A DNA stretch of 44,825 nt from Escherichia phage Gluttony_ev152: the sequence record NC_073087.1. One strand, 5' to 3'. A program made the translations under genes and the position numbers. This document shows, piece after piece, positions 34,686 through 44,825 of the stretch. Each line of letters starts with the position of its first letter. Position 1 is the stretch's first letter. The notes under the pieces were generated by a model. That model was not told the origin of the DNA and made no database searches. It worked only from the letters and a program-made list of their open reading frames with translations.

Positions 34686-34716
34686 GGCCCTCACATCCAT
34701 CGTGGGGGCTTTTTTA
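34686..34716 (+). terminator. putative intrinsic terminator
   Basis: CCCTCAC-loop-GTGGGGG followed by TTTTTT directly after tape measure stop. Confidence 0.5.
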
Positions 34717-35315
34717 TGTCACAAGGTACAATCACTTTAACTAAGGGTAGTAAGACCGTTACAGGAGCGGGGACGGCGTTCCTTAGCGAGATCGGGAAGG
34801 TACTCGTATTCGCCCGCATCGACGGCAACGACTACACCGGCAAAATTGCGGCGTTCAACTCGAACACGGTCATTACACTGAAAGATAACTGGGCTGGCCC
34901 GACGAAATCCGGTGCGGCATATGAGCTAATCGAAGCACACGACCCGCGATCAAACGAATGGCCTTATTACTGGCACATGCAATTGCAGGGCGGTGGCGAC
35001 GTGCAGTTGGCTTTCCGGTCCGAGGAATTGCAATTCGGTAATGGCTACGGGCAGAACATCGCGGACGGCCCGAACGCCGAAACGAAACAATTCCCCGTGC
35101 AATTCGTCGGGCTAACTACTGATAAGTGGTGCGACCCCAAACTGGTTTATAACTTCCTTCGCGGGCACTTCGTCAAGCCGTTTGTCGTCACCGCGCCGGA
35201 TGGTGAAACAGGTTTATTCGTGGTCGAGCGTTCGAGCTTGTCGTACACGGACAACGGGCACTACACGGCAACGGTATCCGCCACCCTTAAGACTGCTATT
35301 GGATTCGTAAGATGA
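34716..35315 (+). CDS. minor tail protein (gpM-like C-terminal half, N-terminal extension)
   Basis: C-terminal FG-GYGQ ... FLRGH ... PDGETG resembles lambda gpM; N-terminal 25 aa share about 11/22 identities with the N-terminus of tail fiber ORF 42191. Confidence 0.6.
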   Translation: MSQGTITLTKGSKTVTGAGTAFLSEIGKVLVFARIDGNDYTGKIAAFNSNTVITLKDNWAGPTKSGAAYELIEAHDPRSNEWPYYWHMQLQGGGDVQLAFRSEELQFGNGYGQNIADGPNAETKQFPVQFVGLTTDKWCDPKLVYNFLRGHFVKPFVVTAPDGETGLFVVERSSLSYTDNGHYTATVSATLKTAIGFVR

Positions 35316-36843: not shown

Positions 36844-37451
36844 CAACGTTTAAATTGTACGGCGTCTTAGGACGTCGATTCGGTAAAGTGCATAAGCTGG
36901 ACTGCTTCACACCGGGCGAAGGAATCACCGGCTTGTGTGTGAAGTTGCCAGGGTTACAAGACTTTTTAATGTCAGCCCACCTGGACAACATGATGTTCAA
37001 AGTGCGCAAGGGCAATCACACCATGACCGGCTACGATGAGCTGGGCGAGTTCCACGGCGACCGCGTAGTGACCATCGCGCCGGTTATGACGGGCGCAAAA
37101 AGCGGACTGGGCCAATTGCTGGCGGGTGTAGCGATCGTGGTGGCGTCGTTCTATACCGGAGGGCTTGCAACTGCCGCTTTCGGAGCTTCAGCGGCTACCG
37201 CGGCCTCTATCGGCGCAGCGACGTTTTCGTTCGGGATGTCGATGGCGCTGGGTGGCGTTATGCAATTGTTATCACCGCAACCGAAAGGATTGCAGACACG
37301 GCAGGACGTGGATAACAAGGCGTCGTACGCGTTCGGCGGGCCGGTGAACACAACCGCGCAAGGCACGGCACTTGGTGTATTATGGGGCGAGCGTGAGATC
37401 GGCGGCGCTATTATTTCCGCCGGAATCGTAACCGAGGACTTGAACGAATGA
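36834..37451 (+). CDS. tail assembly protein I
   Basis: 205 aa with Gly/Ala-rich hydrophobic C-terminal part, overlapping both neighbours; position between K and J. Confidence 0.65.
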   Translation: MAMTTFKLYGVLGRRFGKVHKLDCFTPGEGITGLCVKLPGLQDFLMSAHLDNMMFKVRKGNHTMTGYDELGEFHGDRVVTIAPVMTGAKSGLGQLLAGVAIVVASFYTGGLATAAFGASAATAASIGAATFSFGMSMALGGVMQLLSPQPKGLQTRQDVDNKASYAFGGPVNTTAQGTALGVLWGEREIGGAIISAGIVTEDLNE

Positions 37452-40400
37452 CGATTATCTACGACGTCACGGGCCATAAAGGCGGCGGCGGAAAACAGCA
37501 CACCCCACAGGAGACGCCAGACAGCCTGCATTCGCTGGCTAAAATCCGCATCTTGCTCGCACTGGGCGAAGGGGAGTTCGAAAGTATTACGAGCGCCAGC
37601 GAATTACGGCAGCGCGTCTACCTGGACGGAACACCGATCCAGAACGCCGACCTGTCGGAAAACTTCCCCGGCGCGCGCGTGGAGTTCCGCCCGGGCACAC
37701 AGCACCAGGATGTGATCCACGGATTTTCAGCGGTGGAAAGTGAGCAATCTGTCGGCGTAAAACTGGAAAACGGCACGCCGTGGGTGCGCCAGGTTAACGA
37801 CACCAGTCTTGACGCCGTGCGCATTCGAATCGGCATTCCGGCCCTGTACACTAACGAAGATAATGGCGACCTGGTGGGCGGGCGCATCGACTATAAGATC
37901 GTTGTGTATACGGATAACGCCGACCCGCGTGAGTTCAGATTCGCCGCCGTTGGTAAAACAATGTCGCTATATGAGCGCGACCACCGCATCGAATTACCGC
38001 CGAACGTGAATACCGGCTGGCGAGTGGAGGTGCACCGCATAACGGCAGACTCCACATCGGCGAAAGTGGTTAATGATATCCAGGTGCAATCCATCACTGA
38101 GATTATCGACGCCCGCCTGCGTAACCCGCTAACCGCGCTGTTGTTTGTGGAGTTCGACGCCAAAGCGTTCCAGAACATCCCGCGCGTGTCCATCAAGTGC
38201 AAAGGCCGCAAAGTTCTAATACCGAACAACTACGACCCGATTAATCATACCTATTCCGGGGACTGGGACGGCACGTTTAAACGCGCATGGACGGATAACC
38301 CCGCGTGGCACTGGTACGATATTTGTATTACTGAGCGCTTCGGCCTCGGTCGGCGTATCAAACCGCAAATGTTAAACCGGTACGCGCTCTACCAGATTGC
38401 GCAGCGCTGCGATCAGTTGGTCAGCGACGGCAACGGTGGTCGAGAAATCCGCTTTAAGAATGATATGTACATTCAGTCACAGACGGATGCTTGGACCGTG
38501 CTTAAGGATTTAGCCGCTATCTTTGCCGGTATGACCTGGTGGGGAAATCAGATGTTGAATATCGTCAGTGACCAGCCGGTCGCAGCGGTATCGCACACCA
38601 TCACCAACGCTTCGGTCATTGATGGTCGATTCGACTACGCGTCCGGTAGCCAGAAAACTCGGTATTCCACATTCGCGGTAGCATACGGCAACACGAAGAA
38701 CCACTATGAAGATGCCATTGCTACGGGGCAGCGTGTCGAACTGGTACGCCGCCATAAGATTAACCGTCTGGATATAACGGCGATCGGCTGTACGCGTGAG
38801 TCAGAAGCGCAACGACGTGGGCACTGGGCGCTAATCTCCAACCAGCTTGACCAGCAAGTTAGCTTTAAGGTTGGCATGGAGGGACTTTTCTTTATTCCGG
38901 GTAGCGTAGTCGCGATCGCCGATACAAACATTTCTGGCGGCTTCGAGACACGCGGCGGTCGCCTGTTGCCGGACCCTGGCACGCGTACCGTGCTTAACAC
39001 GGACAGCGAAATCACGTTCCGCCCAGGTGATAAATTCCTGGTACGCACCGATAGCGGTAATGTGGAGACTCGCGAGATCGCCAGCGTCAACGGCAACAAG
39101 GTTACGCTAAAAACCGCACTGGACGCCGACCCGATTCCTGATCAGCCGTTTTGCGTCGATGGCAACGATATCCAGTTGCAGAAGTTCCGCATCACCGACC
39201 TGGAATATGACGACTCTACCAGCACTTTTTCAGTGCGCGGGATCGAGTACAACGATAGCAAATATGATGCCGTTGATAATGGCGCTCGCCTTGATCCGGG
39301 CATCTTTACTCAAGTGCCGGACGGCGTAATGAAGGGGCCGGAGTCCGTGACCATAACCCCGTCGCAGATTTCATCGCAAGGCCAGCTAATCACCAACGTG
39401 GATATTGTTTTCCCGCCGGTTAAGGACGCCGTGGTGTATGAAATCCAGTGGCGACGTACCAGCTTGCAGAATATGGAAATCCAGTGGGGTAACGACTGGG
39501 TGAACATCCCCCGCACGGCATCGAACGGCGCGCACATCCCTAACGTGTTCTCCGGTAACTACCAGGCACGCGTCCGCGCAATCGGTATGGGCGAGATTTC
39601 ATCCCCGTGGGTGTCGTCTGCCATCACGCCGATAGAAGGTCGTCTCGGCGGGCTTAACGCGCCTATCATCACCAACGCGATTTCGGGCCTCCACCAAATT
39701 TTGTGGAAGTGGAACCACAACAACGCCGCGACGGATATTTCGTACACCGAGCTTGAAGTGCGCAAGACCGGTGAAACGGAGTGGAAATTTCTTACCAACG
39801 TCCCATATCCGGGGGCGGAGTATGCGCAAACGTCACTGGAGTTCGGGATCTATCAGCAGTTGCGCGCCCGTGTAGCGGATAAAATCGGCAACCTGTCGGA
39901 CTGGTCGGCCCCGTTTGAAGGGCAGGTGAGTGACAAAGTTGACGAATACATGAAGGGGCTTGATGACGAGTTCTTGACTTCCGAGGACGGTAAACGCTTC
40001 CAGGAAGCGATCGACACCATGCCGCAAGGTATCTATGAGTCTATGCTTACGGACGCCCAGCAGCTATTCAATGCCCGCGCCGAGTATAAAGGGATTTATG
40101 CGGAAATCACGGTGGCGTATAACGTGGCGGCGGACGCGCATAAAGCCGTAGCGCAACTGGAAACGTTGATCGGCACGCGCCTTGATGACGCTGAAGCATC
40201 AATCCACACGTTGCAGACTGCGCAAAGCACACATGAACAAGCGTTCGCCCAGTACCAGCAAACTGTTGCCGCTAAGTTTTCGGGACAGGAAGCCGCCATC
40301 CAGCAGGTACAAACGGCAACGGCGGACGTGGCTGGCGCACTGGCGGAGTATAAGACCCAGGTCGCGGCGCAGTTCGGACAGCAGTCCGCAGCTATCGAGC

Positions 40401-40894
40401 AGAAGATGACGTCTTCGTTTAACCATGCTGGTGGCAGCGCCACGTACAGTCTTAAGGCTGGCGTGACGTATAACGGGACTTACTATGACGCCGGTATGCA
40501 GCTTTCAGTTGTGACGTCTGGCAACGCAGTTAAATCGCGTATTGCGTTCAAAGCCGACCAGTTCTATATCATGCACCCATCTAATGGGTCGCTTTCGTCC
40601 GCGTTTATCGTTGACGGCGGGCAGGTGTATATTGACACGGCACGCATCAAGGACGCGTCAATCAACTTTGCGCAGATCACGGACACGCTGCAATCAAATA
40701 ACTACGCTTCAGGGTCACGCGGCTGGCGTATCCAGAAAGGCGGCGCTGCGGAGTTCAACGAAGTAACGGTCCGCGGCAACCTGTACGCCACATCCGGTAA
40801 CTTCGGATTCTCCGGTGGGACCGTGACGATTGACAAGACAGGAGTAAACGTGCCGTTACCTGGCGGGGGAAGGGTTAAAGTCGGGACGTGGTAA
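37448..40894 (+). CDS. central tail fiber / host specificity protein J
   Basis: 1148 aa; N-terminus HKGGGGKQHTPQETPDSLHS resembles lambda J N-terminus (GKGSSKGHTPREAKDNL); follows M-L-K-I order. Confidence 0.85.
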   Translation: MTIIYDVTGHKGGGGKQHTPQETPDSLHSLAKIRILLALGEGEFESITSASELRQRVYLDGTPIQNADLSENFPGARVEFRPGTQHQDVIHGFSAVESEQSVGVKLENGTPWVRQVNDTSLDAVRIRIGIPALYTNEDNGDLVGGRIDYKIVVYTDNADPREFRFAAVGKTMSLYERDHRIELPPNVNTGWRVEVHRITADSTSAKVVNDIQVQSITEIIDARLRNPLTALLFVEFDAKAFQNIPRVSIKCKGRKVLIPNNYDPINHTYSGDWDGTFKRAWTDNPAWHWYDICITERFGLGRRIKPQMLNRYALYQIAQRCDQLVSDGNGGREIRFKNDMYIQSQTDAWTVLKDLAAIFAGMTWWGNQMLNIVSDQPVAAVSHTITNASVIDGRFDYASGSQKTRYSTFAVAYGNTKNHYEDAIATGQRVELVRRHKINRLDITAIGCTRESEAQRRGHWALISNQLDQQVSFKVGMEGLFFIPGSVVAIADTNISGGFETRGGRLLPDPGTRTVLNTDSEITFRPGDKFLVRTDSGNVETREIASVNGNKVTLKTALDADPIPDQPFCVDGNDIQLQKFRITDLEYDDSTSTFSVRGIEYNDSKYDAVDNGARLDPGIFTQVPDGVMKGPESVTITPSQISSQGQLITNVDIVFPPVKDAVVYEIQWRRTSLQNMEIQWGNDWVNIPRTASNGAHIPNVFSGNYQARVRAIGMGEISSPWVSSAITPIEGRLGGLNAPIITNAISGLHQILWKWNHNNAATDISYTELEVRKTGETEWKFLTNVPYPGAEYAQTSLEFGIYQQLRARVADKIGNLSDWSAPFEGQVSDKVDEYMKGLDDEFLTSEDGKRFQEAIDTMPQGIYESMLTDAQQLFNARAEYKGIYAEITVAYNVAADAHKAVAQLETLIGTRLDDAEASIHTLQTAQSTHEQAFAQYQQTVAAKFSGQEAAIQQVQTATADVAGALAEYKTQVAAQFGQQSAAIEQKMTSSFNHAGGSATYSLKAGVTYNGTYYDAGMQLSVVTSGNAVKSRIAFKADQFYIMHPSNGSLSSAFIVDGGQVYIDTARIKDASINFAQITDTLQSNNYASGSRGWRIQKGGAAEFNEVTVRGNLYATSGNFGFSGGTVTIDKTGVNVPLPGGGRVKVGTW

Positions 40895-40899
40895 ATGCG

Positions 40900-40924
40900 A
40901 TGGGGCCAGATGGCCCCATTTTCA
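40900..40924 (+). terminator. putative terminator between convergent genes
   Basis: GGGGCCAGATGGCCCC followed by ATTTTC; lies between J (+) and minus-strand ORF end. Confidence 0.45.
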
Positions 40925-41887
40925 ATACATATTCGGGATGACGAGTAGCGGTGTTGGTACTGCAATATTTTTACTTGGCATCTGGAATTGCTGCCGTGAG
41001 TAGTTGCCGATGACGCGGTTTTTAGCGACGCGCACATTATTACCCGCCATGCGTATGCCGTTCATGCGGACGTGGTTATAGCCACCGTTGTTCTGAATCA
41101 GTGCGCCGGTGTATGAAAGCTGGATCAGGCTGTTTCCAATATTCTGGTCGCCCGTTCCGATGTTAATAGTGCGGTCATATACGAACGGCTTGTTCACCGT
41201 CGAGAACGTAACCTGATTCTGGTTATTCGTCATGGTGATTCCGGCCCCCGGAGTGGGTGGTGTGTTGTTGAATATCACCAAATCCATGTCCACCGAAGCC
41301 GCCACATCGTCGATGCCTCCATAGGACGCGTTGCGGACGATAATACTGCCGCCATCGAAGCCTACTGATACGTTGCCATCATCCCATCGGGCGAACGGAA
41401 CACCGCCAACCGGCAAGGCCATACTACCGTTGACGCGCACGCGCTGTGCGTATCGGCAGGTCATTAGCTTAGACACGTTGGATATGGCGGTGAAGTCCGT
41501 CGAGTTAGCCACCAGTAAACCTGCGTTGCGCGAACCAACCGGCAGCACTTCCATTATGACGCCCGCCCATTGTGGTAAACCAGAGTACGCGCCATACGCA
41601 TCCTCCCCGCGCAGGGTGATACCACTATTACCGTTGCGAGTAACCGACGTAACGTAAAACGGGTCGGGAATTACCAGGGTCTGGTCAAACACCTCAATCA
41701 CTTCTACCGGGCGAGTGAGCGCGACGATGACCTGCGACCCATCCGTAAGCGGGGTGTTAATGGTTAGCGTCTTGTTGGACTGTGCCCGCTGGTTAAAGCT
41801 GGTGCAGTATGACGGCGCGCGGAGTCCCGCGGTTATCTCCATGCGCGGCCTTCCGTCGTTATAGTCGATAAGTATTCCAGCGCCCAT
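40922..41887 (-). CDS. hypothetical Asn/Gly/Thr-rich protein (beta-helix-like)
   Basis: Reverse-oriented; starts right after the lipoprotein gene stop (ATG 41887 with GGGAG RBS, alternative GTG 41896); repeated N/G/T-rich segments; no signal peptide. Confidence 0.5.
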   Translation of the reverse strand: MGAGILIDYNDGRPRMEITAGLRAPSYCTSFNQRAQSNKTLTINTPLTDGSQVIVALTRPVEVIEVFDQTLVIPDPFYVTSVTRNGNSGITLRGEDAYGAYSGLPQWAGVIMEVLPVGSRNAGLLVANSTDFTAISNVSKLMTCRYAQRVRVNGSMALPVGGVPFARWDDGNVSVGFDGGSIIVRNASYGGIDDVAASVDMDLVIFNNTPPTPGAGITMTNNQNQVTFSTVNKPFVYDRTINIGTGDQNIGNSLIQLSYTGALIQNNGGYNHVRMNGIRMAGNNVRVAKNRVIGNYSRQQFQMPSKNIAVPTPLLVIPNMY

Positions 41888-41889
41888 TA

Positions 41890-42111
41890 TTACCACTCCC
41901 GTGATTTAACTGATACTGTGCCTGAGAAATTGCCGTCGCTATCTGAAGACAGCCCAGTGAATCGCATGTCTACATCTCCTGCCGGTACTTTTTGCCCGTC
42001 AACGTAGCGCAACATGCAGCTACCGTAAGCAACCGTAACGCAATCGCCATTGTTGCGTTCTACGGCGCAACCGGACAAAAGAACCGCACAAATCATAATT
42101 AAAGTTTTCAT
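41890..42111 (-). CDS. small outer-membrane lipoprotein (Cor/Llp-like superinfection-exclusion candidate)
   Basis: 73 aa from internal ATG with AGGGGA RBS; signal peptide MKTLIMICAVLLSGC with lipobox LSGC; reverse-oriented between J and tail fiber genes. Confidence 0.55.
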   Translation of the reverse strand: MKTLIMICAVLLSGCAVERNNGDCVTVAYGSCMLRYVDGQKVPAGDVDMRFTGLSSDSDGNFSGTVSVKSREW

Positions 42112-42190
42112 GGTATCATCCCCTATATTTGGTTGAGTTTTAGTATTACACCGCTCAACCAGGATTGCAACCAATTACGAGGATTTAGCT

Positions 42191-44602
42191 ATGGCAGCGG
42201 GTACGCTATCCGTAACGAACAATAGCAAGGCGGTAGTAGGGGTCGGCACCACGTTTACCGCGTTTAAAGCTGGCGACTTCTTAACGTTGGTGGTAGGACA
42301 AGTCCCATACACCGTGGCAATCGCGTCCATTGAAAGCGCAACCGCGCTTACGCTGGTGCTGCCGTTCGACGGCCCAACGGCAACCGGCCTTGCGTGGGAC
42401 GGCGTTAAGCGCGATACCATGTCACTGGCAACGATGGGCGTTACCGTACAGGCACAGAAAGCGTTGCGATTGATGATCGCAGATGAAAACAACTGGCGCG
42501 CTATCTTCGGCGAAGAAGAAGAAATCTCGGTCACGCTACCGAACGGTCAAGTGGTGCAGGGTATGTCGTGGGGCTACCTGTCAAAACTGCTTAAAGACGT
42601 AGATCCTGTTGAATTGCAGGCTATCGCGGACCAGACCATCACGGCTAAAAACCAGGCGCAAGGATTCCGTAACGAGGCGGAAGGCTTCAAGAACACCGCG
42701 AATACCGCGAAAGATGCCGCAGTAGCTGCGAAGACAGCGGCGGAGACAGCTAAGTCGCAGGCCGTAACCGCTAAAGCGAAGACAGCGGCGGAGACAGCTA
42801 AGTCGCAGGCCGTAACCGCTAAAGACCAGGCCAAAGGATTTCGCGACGAGGCTGAAGGCTTCGCCAACAGCGCGGACGCGTCAAAGAAAGTGCCGTATGC
42901 TGGCGTAACATTACCGGCACCGACTGGAGTAAGGGATATGCTCAAGCGGTTGCGCGATTCGGTTAAGGGCGGCTTCTGGCGCGTCGATGATATTGCGCAG
43001 TTTCCATCTGGCGAGATGACCCCTTTCAGATACGGACCTGGCGTATGTGGCGGCGCGGGGGATACATTCTTTGCAATCAACGTTGACTGGCAAACCTCGC
43101 GCGTTAAAGTTTTCTCGGGAAACAACAACGCGATCAACGGTGCGTCGGGAAGTGTTAGCGCTATCGAACTGGCTAAGCTGGGGGCTAACGGGGACGTGGC
43201 GATCGGGGACGGCGGGACCGGTGCATCGAACGACCAGGGCGCGAGAAAAAACCTTCAGGCAATGCACGAGCGACAGGCATCGTTGGATACTGAAGATCTT
43301 AACGTCCTTCAGGGTGATAAGGCTGGGTTTTATTATCAGTCCCTGTCGGCTAACGCCACCCCCGAACGTAACTATCCTATTAACCAGGCGGGTTGTTTAC
43401 TGGTGCAAAGATCCGGTGCTAACGATCCGAAAAGCTGCATACAAACGTACACCTCATACCTTAACGGTCGGCGCTGGATTCGATGGCTGAGCAACGCGAC
43501 TACTGGCACTTGGTCCCAATGGTACGAATTATATAACGCAGGGTCGTCGCCGACTTTTTCTGGAGTAATTACTGGATCTGCGGTGCGCGCTTCCGTTGAC
43601 GGAAAGATCATAACTATTAAACCTGGCGTCAATGATGTAGTTATTCACAACTCGGCATCTAATAAATTTTTGCAATTAAAGGACGATGGCGGTCTTTCGT
43701 ATGACAACAAGCTGATCGCGTATAACGGCCTTGCCGCCAGTGGCACATTTGCTATGACCGTCCCTAGCATTAAAGTTACAACAGCCAATGGCGGATTTCG
43801 TATCGACGGAACAACGTCGACAAACAACCAGCCACTTCACGTAACAGGCTACAACTCCGCAGGCACGCGTCTTTGGTTTTTAGGGAAGGACACCGGGACG
43901 AACGCGCTATTCCTGAACGATGTTACATCGTCTAAGGTTGAGCTGATCACAGACGGCGTTGTGCTTGGTACAAAGAATTTTGCGGGCAAGGCATACGTCC
44001 AGGCCGCAAGTTTAGAGATCGACCGACCGAGCGGCAAGTATTTCAAAATGCAGAACGACGGCACCTCGTCGCACCCTGCAACCTTCAAATTATGGGGTAA
44101 CGGGTCTGAGAGGGCGTCGGTTATTGAGTGTGGTTTTGATAACGGCCCTGGGTGGGTGTTTTACGCGCAATATAACAGCAACGGCACGCGCCAGATGAAC
44201 GTTAACGGTACGGTAAACTGCACGACGGTAAACCAGTCGTCTGACCGCGAGTTGAAGGATAACATCAAGCCGATCGAGAACGCTCGCGCGGGCCTTGCTA
44301 AGATGGGCGGTTATACCTACACCCTGAAAAAAGACGGTATGCCGTACGCCGGGGTGATTGCACAGGAAGTAATGGACGTTGTGCCGGAAGCGGTGAGCAC
44401 GTTCGAAGACTACGAACACCTTGCGGGGCCAACGCAAGACGGCGAGGAACTGGTAGGGCGTCAGCGCTTCTTCCAGGTGGACTACGGCGCTATTGCGGCG
44501 TACGCGGTGCAAGTGTGTAAAGAACAGGAAGAGGAACTGGTGTCATTACGCAGCGAACTGGAGGAATTAAAAGCTGCCGTAGCGGCACTGACTAAAGCAT
44601 AA
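42191..44602 (+). CDS. tail fiber protein with C-terminal intramolecular chaperone (peptidase S74-like) domain
   Basis: 803 aa; C-terminus SDRELKDNIKPIENA ... GGYTYTLKKDG ... GVIAQEV ... QVDYGAIAAY ... coiled-coil matches the autoproteolytic chaperone domain of endosialidase and T5 L-shaped fiber type; internal 48-nt tandem duplication. Confidence 0.8.
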   Translation: MAAGTLSVTNNSKAVVGVGTTFTAFKAGDFLTLVVGQVPYTVAIASIESATALTLVLPFDGPTATGLAWDGVKRDTMSLATMGVTVQAQKALRLMIADENNWRAIFGEEEEISVTLPNGQVVQGMSWGYLSKLLKDVDPVELQAIADQTITAKNQAQGFRNEAEGFKNTANTAKDAAVAAKTAAETAKSQAVTAKAKTAAETAKSQAVTAKDQAKGFRDEAEGFANSADASKKVPYAGVTLPAPTGVRDMLKRLRDSVKGGFWRVDDIAQFPSGEMTPFRYGPGVCGGAGDTFFAINVDWQTSRVKVFSGNNNAINGASGSVSAIELAKLGANGDVAIGDGGTGASNDQGARKNLQAMHERQASLDTEDLNVLQGDKAGFYYQSLSANATPERNYPINQAGCLLVQRSGANDPKSCIQTYTSYLNGRRWIRWLSNATTGTWSQWYELYNAGSSPTFSGVITGSAVRASVDGKIITIKPGVNDVVIHNSASNKFLQLKDDGGLSYDNKLIAYNGLAASGTFAMTVPSIKVTTANGGFRIDGTTSTNNQPLHVTGYNSAGTRLWFLGKDTGTNALFLNDVTSSKVELITDGVVLGTKNFAGKAYVQAASLEIDRPSGKYFKMQNDGTSSHPATFKLWGNGSERASVIECGFDNGPGWVFYAQYNSNGTRQMNVNGTVNCTTVNQSSDRELKDNIKPIENARAGLAKMGGYTYTLKKDGMPYAGVIAQEVMDVVPEAVSTFEDYEHLAGPTQDGEELVGRQRFFQVDYGAIAAYAVQVCKEQEEELVSLRSELEELKAAVAALTKA
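42730..42825 (+). repeat. 48-nt tandem duplication inside tail fiber gene
   Basis: GAAGACAGCGGCGGAGACAGCTAAGTCGCAGGCCGTAACCGCTAAAG occurs twice back to back, encoding KTAAETAKSQAVTAK twice. Confidence 0.7.
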
Positions 44603-44605
44603 CGA

Positions 44606-44632
44606 GAAGGGGCCGCACGGCCCCTTTTTTTT
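44606..44632 (+). terminator. intrinsic terminator
   Basis: GGGGCCGCACGGCCCC plus T8 after tail fiber gene. Confidence 0.7.
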
Positions 44633-44825
44633 AGTTTGAGTTTTCCCAGTCCATTTTGCGCCTAACCAGCGGGCTTTCGTAATATTCCTTTCCTTCCACT
44701 TCCACTAAGGGCCAATCATTAACAATCACGTATGGCTCTGCGATATCCTCAATCACGCCGTGCGCGCTTTGCGGCCCTAACGATACACCCACCAGGATAA
44801 CACCGGCAACGCGACGTAACAGATA
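44631..44825 (-). CDS. hypothetical protein, 5' end outside window
   Basis: Minus-strand frame open from window edge to TAA at 44631-44633 (ends ...KEYYESPLVRRKMDWENSN); terminator hairpin directly downstream. Confidence 0.35.
   Translation of the reverse strand, partial: YLLRRVAGVILVGVSLGPQSAHGVIEDIAEPYVIVNDWPLVEVEGKEYYESPLVRRKMDWENSN

Follow-up and report, generated by a model that had tools for sequence, protein, structure and literature searches.

A perfect tandem repeat in the lateral tail fibre stalk of Escherichia phage Gluttony_ev152 as the probable scar of a 15-nt deletion

The lateral tail fibre gene of Escherichia phage Gluttony_ev152 contains two identical 48-nt copies that directly abut one another in the segment encoding its stalk, which raises the question of how this repeat arose and what it does to the fibre. 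We examined the gene within the window, i.e., the whole 44,825-nt stretch of phage DNA analysed here, to which all coordinates refer. A previous sequence-only reading had described a tail fibre with a self-cleaving C-terminal chaperone and had explained the repeat by recent slippage duplication in a length-variable stalk. The gene and the element that follows it are:

42191..44602, + strand: lateral (side) tail fibre gene, an ORF of 803 aa assigned to PHROG tail-fibre families
44604..44629, + strand: intrinsic terminator hairpin (11-bp stem, then a T run), directly 3' of the stop codon and between convergent genes

The encoded protein was identical to VUF54124.1 / YP_010742484.1, annotated as 'Phage tail fibers' of Escherichia phage Gluttony_ev152 (exact protein match). 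PHROG tail-fibre families matched the ORF with E-values down to 1e-93, and the gene lies downstream of a J-like gene, a synteny shared with other Dhillonvirus genomes; on both counts the assignment to a tail fibre held. The two features looked for in a Dhillonvirus lateral fibre, a genus-conserved N-terminal anchor and this position downstream of the J-like gene, were both present, and the product is the trimeric lateral tail fibre of the Dhillonvirus Gluttony_ev152. Lateral fibre genes of Dhillonvirus and Tunavirus in the BASEL collection likewise follow the gene of the J-like central fibre, and the N-terminal anchor is conserved across the genus. Antisense ORFs over the fibre gene (42175-42534, 42574-43137 and 44090-44512) were without family matches and were taken as spurious. 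The promoter scan gave 5 sites, not above the shuffled expectation of 2.5 +/- 1.8. We also considered that 'ev152' might denote an evolved phage that acquired the fibre in an evolution experiment. This was rejected, since Gluttony_ev152 (GenBank LR597646) was isolated from human infant faeces (PMC9737526, PMC6969025), and it was further ruled out by the presence of the same genome in several metagenome samples. Taken by itself, the gene is a routine, already deposited lateral fibre with a well-known self-cleaving chaperone and changes little; the fibre type, the chaperone and the module mosaicism are all already known.

At its N-terminus, the fibre shares a domain with a second tail protein of the phage:

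42191..42409, + strand: N-terminal small beta-barrel domain of the fibre (aa 1-73, AF2 model), presumed virion-attachment domain, genus-conserved
34716..35315, + strand: distal tail protein (Dit, 199 aa); residues 1-73 are paralogous to the fibre N-terminal domain and residues 86-187 are gpM-like (PF05939)

The AF2 model of the fibre N-terminus placed strands within aa 5-72 (pLDDT 82-89), and nt 1-504 of the gene matched approximately 130 Dhillonvirus records at 84-92% identity. A resemblance between the first 25 residues and the protein at 34716 had been noticed previously; we found that it is longer, with 26 of 74 residues identical (35%, E=2e-7). The 'gpM-like' label of the latter protein was also correct for its C-terminal half, which matched PF05939. 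The Dit matched a solved structure, 23gd_B ('Distal tail protein gp20'), with an E-value of 1e-130, and the fibre itself matched the same structure at E=9e-5 to 5e-4. In addition, the N-terminal domain of the Dit was similar to the N-terminus of PyoF13, the side fibre of an F2-pyocin (25ve_A, E=1e-4); the direct match of the fibre to 25ve_A was not significant (E=0.37). A Foldseek search with the N-terminal model returned weak beta-barrel matches alone (E of at least 0.04), in a library that is possibly older than 23gd and 25ve. The beta-barrel at aa 1-73, also found at the Dit N-terminus, presumably attaches the fibre to the tail tip. The Gluttony_ev152 J-like protein is strongly related to the central fibre of the same F2-pyocin (25vf_A, E=5e-223), in which the OB-like attachment domain at the PyoF13 N-terminus forms a ring around the central fibre (PMC13455828). 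However, pyocin attachment is to the shaft of the central fibre and not to Dit.

The opposite end of the protein carries the chaperone:

44240..44599, + strand: intramolecular chaperone Peptidase_S74 (PF13884, aa 684-803), with S684 at 44240-44242 and K689 at 44255-44257

PF13884 matched aa 684-735 with an E-value of 2.3e-13, covering positions 1-57 of the 58 in the profile and scoring 50.6 bits where the cut-off is 22, which agrees with the S74-type chaperone previously placed in the last 120 residues: aa 684-803 make up exactly 120 aa if the chain is cut before S684. A Ser-Lys dyad of the form S-x4-K (S684-D-R-E-L-K689) was present at the start of the domain; S684 was invariant in 56 of 56 aligned homologues, and D685 and K689 were conserved in at least 90%. 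The corresponding dyads are S911/K916 in endoNF and S587/K592 in MyRF, and MyRF is cut between P586 and S587 (PMC8326128). Judged from sequence, the predicted scissile bond lies between S683 and S684. The chaperone would drive trimer folding and then cut itself off there through S684 and K689, leaving a mature chain of ~72 kDa and a free fragment of ~13 kDa. Endosialidase endoNF, the T5 pb1 L-shaped fibre, S16 gp37 and MyRF all share with the Gluttony_ev152 fibre the Pfam S74 family, an SDxxxK sequence with Ser and Lys five residues apart, a G(V/L)IAQE segment, a C-terminal place on a trimeric fibre and a terminal helix, the last being putative in Gluttony_ev152. Unlike in endoNF and pb1, autocleavage is here a prediction, and the upstream fold is neither that of an endosialidase nor a pb1-like tip; the upstream region had no sequence match to endosialidase or pb1 entries in PDB.

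Between these two ends lies the stalk with the repeat, followed by the distal region:

42605..42886, + strand: Ala-rich alpha-helical heptad coiled-coil stalk (aa 139-232) with an a/d pattern and weak T7 gp17 similarity
42662..42688, + strand: proximal junction motif GFRNEAEGF (aa 158-166), read from the sequence
42728..42775, + strand: 48-nt repeat copy 1, AKTAAETAKSQAVTAK (Tandem Repeats Finder and direct check)
42776..42823, + strand: 48-nt repeat copy 2, identical to copy 1; homology to Tunavirus fibres begins here
42836..42862, + strand: distal junction motif GFRDEAEGF (aa 216-224), read from the sequence
42887..44239, + strand: beta-rich distal shaft and receptor-binding region (aa 233-683), a module common to Tunavirus (T1-like) lateral fibres

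Tandem Repeats Finder reported a period of 48 with 2.0 copies and 100% match at 42728-42824, and direct comparison revealed one extra matching base beyond the 48-nt copies. The perfect repeat is thus real, although the coordinates claimed previously (42730-42825) start 2 nt too late and end 1 nt too far downstream, and it cannot be attributed to chance. The GFR(N/D)EAEGF motif is also present, yet not as the 'series' in which the repeat was said to be embedded: the Gluttony_ev152 fibre has two copies, which have 23 of 27 nt in common and flank the Ala-rich segment. Some relatives possess an extra adjacent copy, KYRYEAEGFRNEAEGF.

We compared the gene with its uncultured counterpart, represented by L034, L043 and L037 from the 44,895-bp scaffold or vOTU. 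This gut-metagenome scaffold matched Gluttony_ev152 at 44,825 of 44,825 positions, with no mismatches and a single 15-nt gap, and the fibre genes of two further loci (L031 and L032) differed from that of Gluttony_ev152 by the 15-nt indel alone. The 15 nt missing in Gluttony_ev152, ACGGCAGCCGAGTCC (TAAES), fall exactly between the two copies, at the junction of 42775 and 42776; in the uncultured counterpart one copy follows the other at a distance of 63 nt, or three heptads, and the register is kept. The same spacer was found at the corresponding site in welsh, LF50P3, SD276, L005 and L006 and is therefore ancestral, so that the simplest reading of the tandem repeat is a repeat of 63-nt period minus its spacer and not a fresh duplication. 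The junction at which the two copies abut (R-R) was absent from IMG/VR and JGI metagenome contigs in exact-match scans, none of 50,697 phage records had a stalk-region match without the 15-nt length difference, and the 803-aa allele was found in the NCBI record only. Because an otherwise identical genome has the same two copies plus the spacer, the simplest event is a 15-nt deletion, and because this is the only difference between isolate and metagenome, it arose very recently. A recent origin, as suggested by the sequence-only reading, was thus supported, whereas slippage duplication was not. We put the probability of the overall reading, a Dhillonvirus lateral fibre with an S74 chaperone whose tandem repeat is the scar of a spacer loss that shifted the stalk register, at approximately 0.78.

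A fresh 48-nt duplication could still have produced this arrangement through a six-heptad intermediate, that is, from X-R-S-R-Y to X-R-Y by a repeat-mediated 63-nt deletion and then to X-R-R-Y by slippage. The copies are perfect and in tandem, direct repeats of 48 nt without a mismatch would readily allow the loss of 63 nt, and the R-R junction shows microhomology of 1 nt, whereas the one-step 15-nt deletion has none; neither microhomology nor a hairpin that might explain it was found at the deletion flanks. However, this route needs two rare events, yet there are 0 substitutions across 44.8 kb, an X-R-Y allele of the Gluttony_ev152 sequence was not found, and the deletion in P0048 and P0049, relatives with six heptads, is another one. 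We therefore consider it improbable.

Alternatively, the deposited genome might lack the spacer through a mistake in sequencing or assembly, the real phage having an in-register 808-aa fibre. The allele is present in a single record. Moreover, independent assemblies of the same phage break in the repeat (L044 ends at 42757 and L045 at 42678), so the region is hard to assemble. Graph and overlap assemblers, however, collapse or break repeats and do not invent R-R junctions that are absent from the k-mers of the reads, and the reading frame is kept exactly, with precisely the spacer removed. An error of this kind is very unlikely, and a true deletion of the spacer remains our preferred reading.

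The consequence of the deletion is best seen from stalk lengths. When the first 260 aa served as protein query, the Ala-rich stalk of low complexity dominated the result; scoring covered 8,000 word-sharing candidates and missed close relatives, which were therefore gathered from IMG/VR loci and by a distal-region search. In all 49 other Dhillonvirus-type cluster representatives the stalk was 28, 70 or 91 aa long, always a multiple of 7. Forty-six of these had a nine-heptad stalk, and the rare variants differed by whole heptads; likewise, the distance from the anchor to the distal motif was 77, 84 or 105 aa in 21 of 21 related loci. Beside these 49 representatives and 21 loci, the Gluttony_ev152 stalk of 86 aa (remainder 2 on division by 7) was the only one whose length is not a whole number of heptads, which sets this allele apart from the lateral fibres of its genus. 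The corresponding stalk of Tunavirus-type fibres was 114 or 121 aa. In the undeleted 808-aa allele, Ala or Phe occupied every one of the 21 a/d positions between F159 and F229, these two included. In Gluttony_ev152 the heptads are not continuous, and the register breaks after A194 (A194/A196). The loss of five residues shifts the register by +2 at A194-A196. In trimeric coiled coils, a register shift equivalent to a 2-residue insertion is the most straining kind (PMC4786415), and the stalk would be expected to break or hinge locally near these residues. The alpha-helical trimeric coiled-coil shaft of T7 gp17 (7boz, aa 166-191 and 196-276) has an FRxEAExF(K/R)N-type motif in common with this stalk, but the similarity is weak and motif-level (E=0.015), and its anchor and tip domains differ from those of the Gluttony_ev152 fibre.

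These lengths also bear on the length-variable stalk proposed previously, which in its strongest form would be a programmed contingency locus, with high-frequency changes of repeat number that alter fibre reach or host range. Natural stalks of 0, 6, 9 and 12 heptads between the motifs do exist, and PC2 has a perfect 21-nt duplication of its own. However, the 48-nt unit was constant and not seen in other copy numbers, one length prevails in 46 of the 49 representatives with all variants being whole heptads, and some short variants come from short-read assemblies in which the repeat is possibly collapsed. Such a programmed mechanism is extremely unlikely here, and the length-variable stalk was not upheld.

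The stalk is also where fibre modules meet. DNA homology to most Dhillonvirus fibres stops just past GFRNEAEGF (gene nt 504), and the distal module was 80-89% identical at the nucleotide level to Tunavirus fibres; the two GFRxEAEGF motifs that bound the stalk coincide with points of fibre-module exchange between phages. Dhillonvirus lateral fibres are described as helping to cross the O-antigen barrier before porin binding and as facultative on rough hosts (PMC11990801). The most likely role of the distal region (aa 233-683) is recognition of a surface glycan that would serve as a facultative first receptor.

This raises the question of where the spacer was lost. The infant-virome isolates, which include a Gluttony-homologous virulent phage, were obtained with the rough hosts MAC1403 or E. 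coli C (PMC6969025), and we infer that the metagenome samples (label LIXU21-1, SAMN18354172 to SAMN18354237) are linked to the source cohort of the isolate. The deletion could have occurred among the phages of the gut, or later, while plaques were purified and the isolate was amplified on hosts that lack O-antigen and do not need this fibre. In the latter case, it might be a non-neutral 'domestication' mutation that was selected when the phage was plaque-isolated on laboratory E. coli lacking O-antigen and that weakens or re-hinges the lateral fibre by breaking the coiled-coil register, a tentative proposal that we regard as doubtful. There is a parallel in laboratory lambda PaPa, where Hendrix and Duda reportedly described in 1992 a stf frameshift in the lab-propagated stock but not in its wild counterpart, the side fibre being dispensable on K-12-type hosts. 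In both phages a side-fibre lesion is found in the cultured stock and not in the wild counterpart, and the fibre is dispensable on laboratory hosts. However, the lambda frameshift abolishes the fibre, whereas Gluttony_ev152 has an in-frame deletion of five stalk residues for which selection in culture is hypothetical.

The stalk deletion is a small curiosity and possibly a change associated with culture, in a fibre that rough hosts do not require. It nevertheless provides a clean case in which a single event, located in the host-recognition fibre, separates the genome of a cultured phage from that of its uncultured counterpart, and it calls for caution when receptor-binding proteins are inferred or engineered from isolate genomes. 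If the deletion was indeed selected in culture, it would represent a natural single-mutation test of how far a phage fibre stalk needs register continuity. Among the relatives, stalk length changes in whole heptads and modules are swapped at conserved motifs, which offers a practical rule for the design of chimeric fibres, and the out-of-register Gluttony_ev152 allele is a ready-made test of this whole-heptad rule.

The 803-aa protein encoded by the ORF at 42191-44602 (plus strand) was identical to VUF54124.1/YP_010742484.1, "Phage tail fibers" of Escherichia phage Gluttony_ev152, and PHROG tail-fibre families spanned it entirely, in agreement with its initial assignment as a tail fibre. Many Dhillonvirus coliphages matched the gene and its surroundings, the window being a Dhillonvirus genome, and antisense ORFs inside the gene had zero family matches. 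Gluttony_ev152 (GenBank LR597646) is a human faeces isolate (PMC9737526). It originated from a study of coliphages in faecal viromes of 1-year-old children, which used two O-antigen-less strains, MG1655 hsdR (MAC1403) and E. coli C, for plaque purification and amplification (PMC6969025).

Features of the window discussed with the fibre gene
34716-35315, plus strand, two-part distal tail protein: aa 1-73, paralogue of the fibre domain; aa 86-187, gpM-like tail-tube fold
37448-40894, plus strand, J-like central fibre protein, equal in length to PDB 23gd_D ("J-like tail tip protein gp24") and almost the same in sequence
40922-41896, minus strand, DUF6453 gene
Likely true start ATG at 42111, minus strand, PF24052 lipoprotein gene, 73 aa
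44604-44629, strong GC-rich terminator hairpin followed by a T run, directly 3' of the stop codon of the fibre gene and separating two convergent genes; possibly a terminator for both directions

Tandem Repeats Finder detected a 48-nt unit in 2.0 copies with 100% identity at 42728-42824. Direct comparison placed copy 1 at 42728-42775 and copy 2 at 42776-42823, plus one more matching base; the perfect 48-nt tandem repeat of the sequence-only reading is thus present, with coordinates that were wrong by 1-2 nt. A protein search with the distal region identified an 808-aa homolog (P0042) with 100% identity across the queried region. Its gene, present on two ENA metagenome contigs (L031 and L032), had a single difference from that of the window, a 15-nt insertion, ACGGCAGCCGAGTCC (TAAES), located precisely between both 48-nt copies. 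Three pieces of one 44,895-bp scaffold/vOTU (L034, L043 and L037) covered 44,825/44,825 window positions with 0 mismatches, and the sole gap was the 15-nt spacer. The lengths (44,895 - 15 - 55 = 44,825) are consistent with a circular contig whose ends overlap by 55 nt in the assembly. The homologous place in welsh, LF50P3, SD276 and two further loci (L005, L006) also had the spacer, which is therefore ancestral. No junction of abutting copies was detected in IMG/VR or JGI metagenome contigs, and a 50,697-record phage collection contained no stalk-region match that lacked the 15-nt difference in length.

Two identical 48-nt copies 63 nt apart also occurred in three other fibre proteins (P0044, P0050 and P0060). 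A two-step history is the most economical: two identical copies 63 nt (three heptads) apart would first have arisen by in-register gene conversion or duplication, and the Gluttony_ev152 genome would then have lost the spacer, so that the copies abut. A 63-nt deletion followed by a 48-nt duplication is possible, but would require two rare events with zero other change in 44.8 kb. The repeat, previously taken for a recent slippage duplication, is therefore better read as a recent 15-nt deletion within an older in-register repeat, since an otherwise identical metagenome genome has the spacer between both copies. Nothing but this deletion sets the isolate apart from the uncultured genome, and the isolate was propagated on rough hosts, so the deletion may be a culture-associated change. 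It would then be comparable to the side-fibre defect of lambda PaPa. The metagenome sample labels (LIXU21-1, SAMN183541xx/2xx; vOTU_10783) suggest that these samples may come from the same infant cohort as the isolate. COPSAC2010 papers cite PRJNA715601. A polymorphism in the gut is also possible. The 803-aa allele was found in the NCBI record only; an error in that record is possible but less likely.

Independently made short-read assemblies of this phage, or of a near-identical one, broke within or just ahead of the 48-nt repeat: contig L044 ended at window position 42757 and L045 at 42678, and the fibre of L035 was partial. These breaks could be due to the repeat itself or to allele heterogeneity in those samples.

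The deletion also disrupts the heptad register of the coiled-coil stalk. In 21 related loci, DPVE, at the end of the anchor region, was separated from the distal motif by 77, 84 or 105 aa (79 in the window) and the two motifs by 63 or 84 aa (58 in the window), all distances in these loci being multiples of 7. Among 50 cluster representatives with a Dhillonvirus-type anchor, including the window's own protein, the final Phe of the distal motif lay at a distance of 28 (n=1), 70 (n=2) or 91 (n=46), the window's protein (86) being the only exception; Tunavirus-type fibres had 114 or 121 aa, seven apart. The stalk, earlier described as length-variable, thus varies among relatives by whole heptads only, and the window is therefore an outlier, not a case of a variable repeat. 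In the 808-aa allele, Ala or Phe filled all 21 of the 3-4-spaced positions from F159 to F229. In the window, the N-side pattern fails after A194 and the C-side pattern before A196, and the allele lacks a continuous heptad pattern and a stalk length that is a multiple of 7. In register terms, loss of 5 residues equals a 2-residue insertion. Hartmann et al. reported that, in parallel trimeric coiled coils, no discontinuity causes more strain than insertions of 2 or 6 residues, which break helices locally (PMC4786415); by analogy, the Gluttony_ev152 stalk would respond likewise to an out-of-register deletion.

The proposed GFR(N/D)EAEGF series consists of two copies in the window, GFRNEAEGF (aa 158-166) and GFRDEAEGF (aa 216-224), with 23/27 nt in common, and is clearer in relatives. 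Some of these contained two distal-motif copies seven residues apart, KYRYEAEGFRNEAEGF, including P0065, P0075, P0083 and P0089 (Dhillonvirus type) and P0071, P0074 and P0080 (Tunavirus type). Variants with 0 or 6 heptads between the motifs, P0043 (745 aa; proximal motif joined straight to the distal motif) and P0048/P0049 (787 aa), were all derived from Logan short-read assemblies, in which repeat collapse is possible. PC2 (L004) had a different perfect tandem duplication, of 21 nt (SQAVTAK twice, stalk ~1080-1125), and was missing another heptad, leaving the total stalk length unchanged at nine heptads. Length-conserving reshuffling at the heptad level appears to recur.

The S74-type chaperone noticed in the C-terminal 120 aa was confirmed by a Pfam Peptidase_S74 match at aa 684-735 (E=2.3e-13, 50.6 bits, cut-off 22), and the predicted start at S684 defines the same 120 aa. 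S684 is profile position 1, and NQS-S684-DRELK689-DNIKPIEN aligned with LNVSSDRRIKKDIKAFEN of S16 gp37 (6F45). Among 56 aligned homologues, S684 was invariant and D685, L688 and K689 were at least 90% conserved. Catalytic dyads are S911/K916 in EndoNF and S587/K592 in MyRF, which is cut between P586 and S587 (PMC8326128). By homology, the fibre is predicted to be cut at S683|S684, giving a 72.2 kDa mature chain and a 13.2 kDa fragment.

At the other end, an AF2 model (pLDDT 78.5) had a small beta-barrel (aa 5-72) followed by a helix (79-105); a Foldseek search with the model returned weak beta-barrel matches only. By sequence, the suspected resemblance to the protein at 34716 proved real (74 residues, 35% identity, E=2e-7): the domain matched aa 1-73 of the distal tail protein, whose gpM-like part is PF05939 and whose near-identical counterpart has a solved structure (PDB 23gd_B, "Distal tail protein gp20"). 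In the F2-pyocin side fibre (25ve_A), the N-terminal domain matched that of the distal tail protein (E=1e-4); the pyocin domain is described as OB-like and as the part that makes an attachment ring (PMC13455828). The first ~850 residues of the J-like protein showed a strong relationship to the F2-pyocin central fibre (25vf_A, E=5e-223). It is reasonable to infer that the fibre docks via its N-terminal domain.

The receptor module (window 40728-44599) was unlike that of wild-type Gluttony (L033, KX534336). The fibre gene shared no more than its first ~390 nt with this phage, which has a different 592-aa fibre and different neighbour genes. In place of the two minus-strand genes (DUF6453 and PF24052 lipoprotein) between the J-like gene and the fibre gene, Gluttony and welsh have two plus-strand genes and cor. 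Most Dhillonvirus fibres had DNA homology only up to gene nt ~504, just past the proximal motif. The Tunavirus (T1-like) fibres of AV106 and ULIM2 have a different anchor and shared sequence from the repeat unit, AKTAAETAKSQAVTAK, onward (gene nt 586-589), and sharing with JLBYU41 and Poky began at nt 699, just past the distal motif. Because sharing among phages starts or stops there, the coiled coil and its motifs are the seams of a mosaic gene, a pattern familiar for phage fibres.
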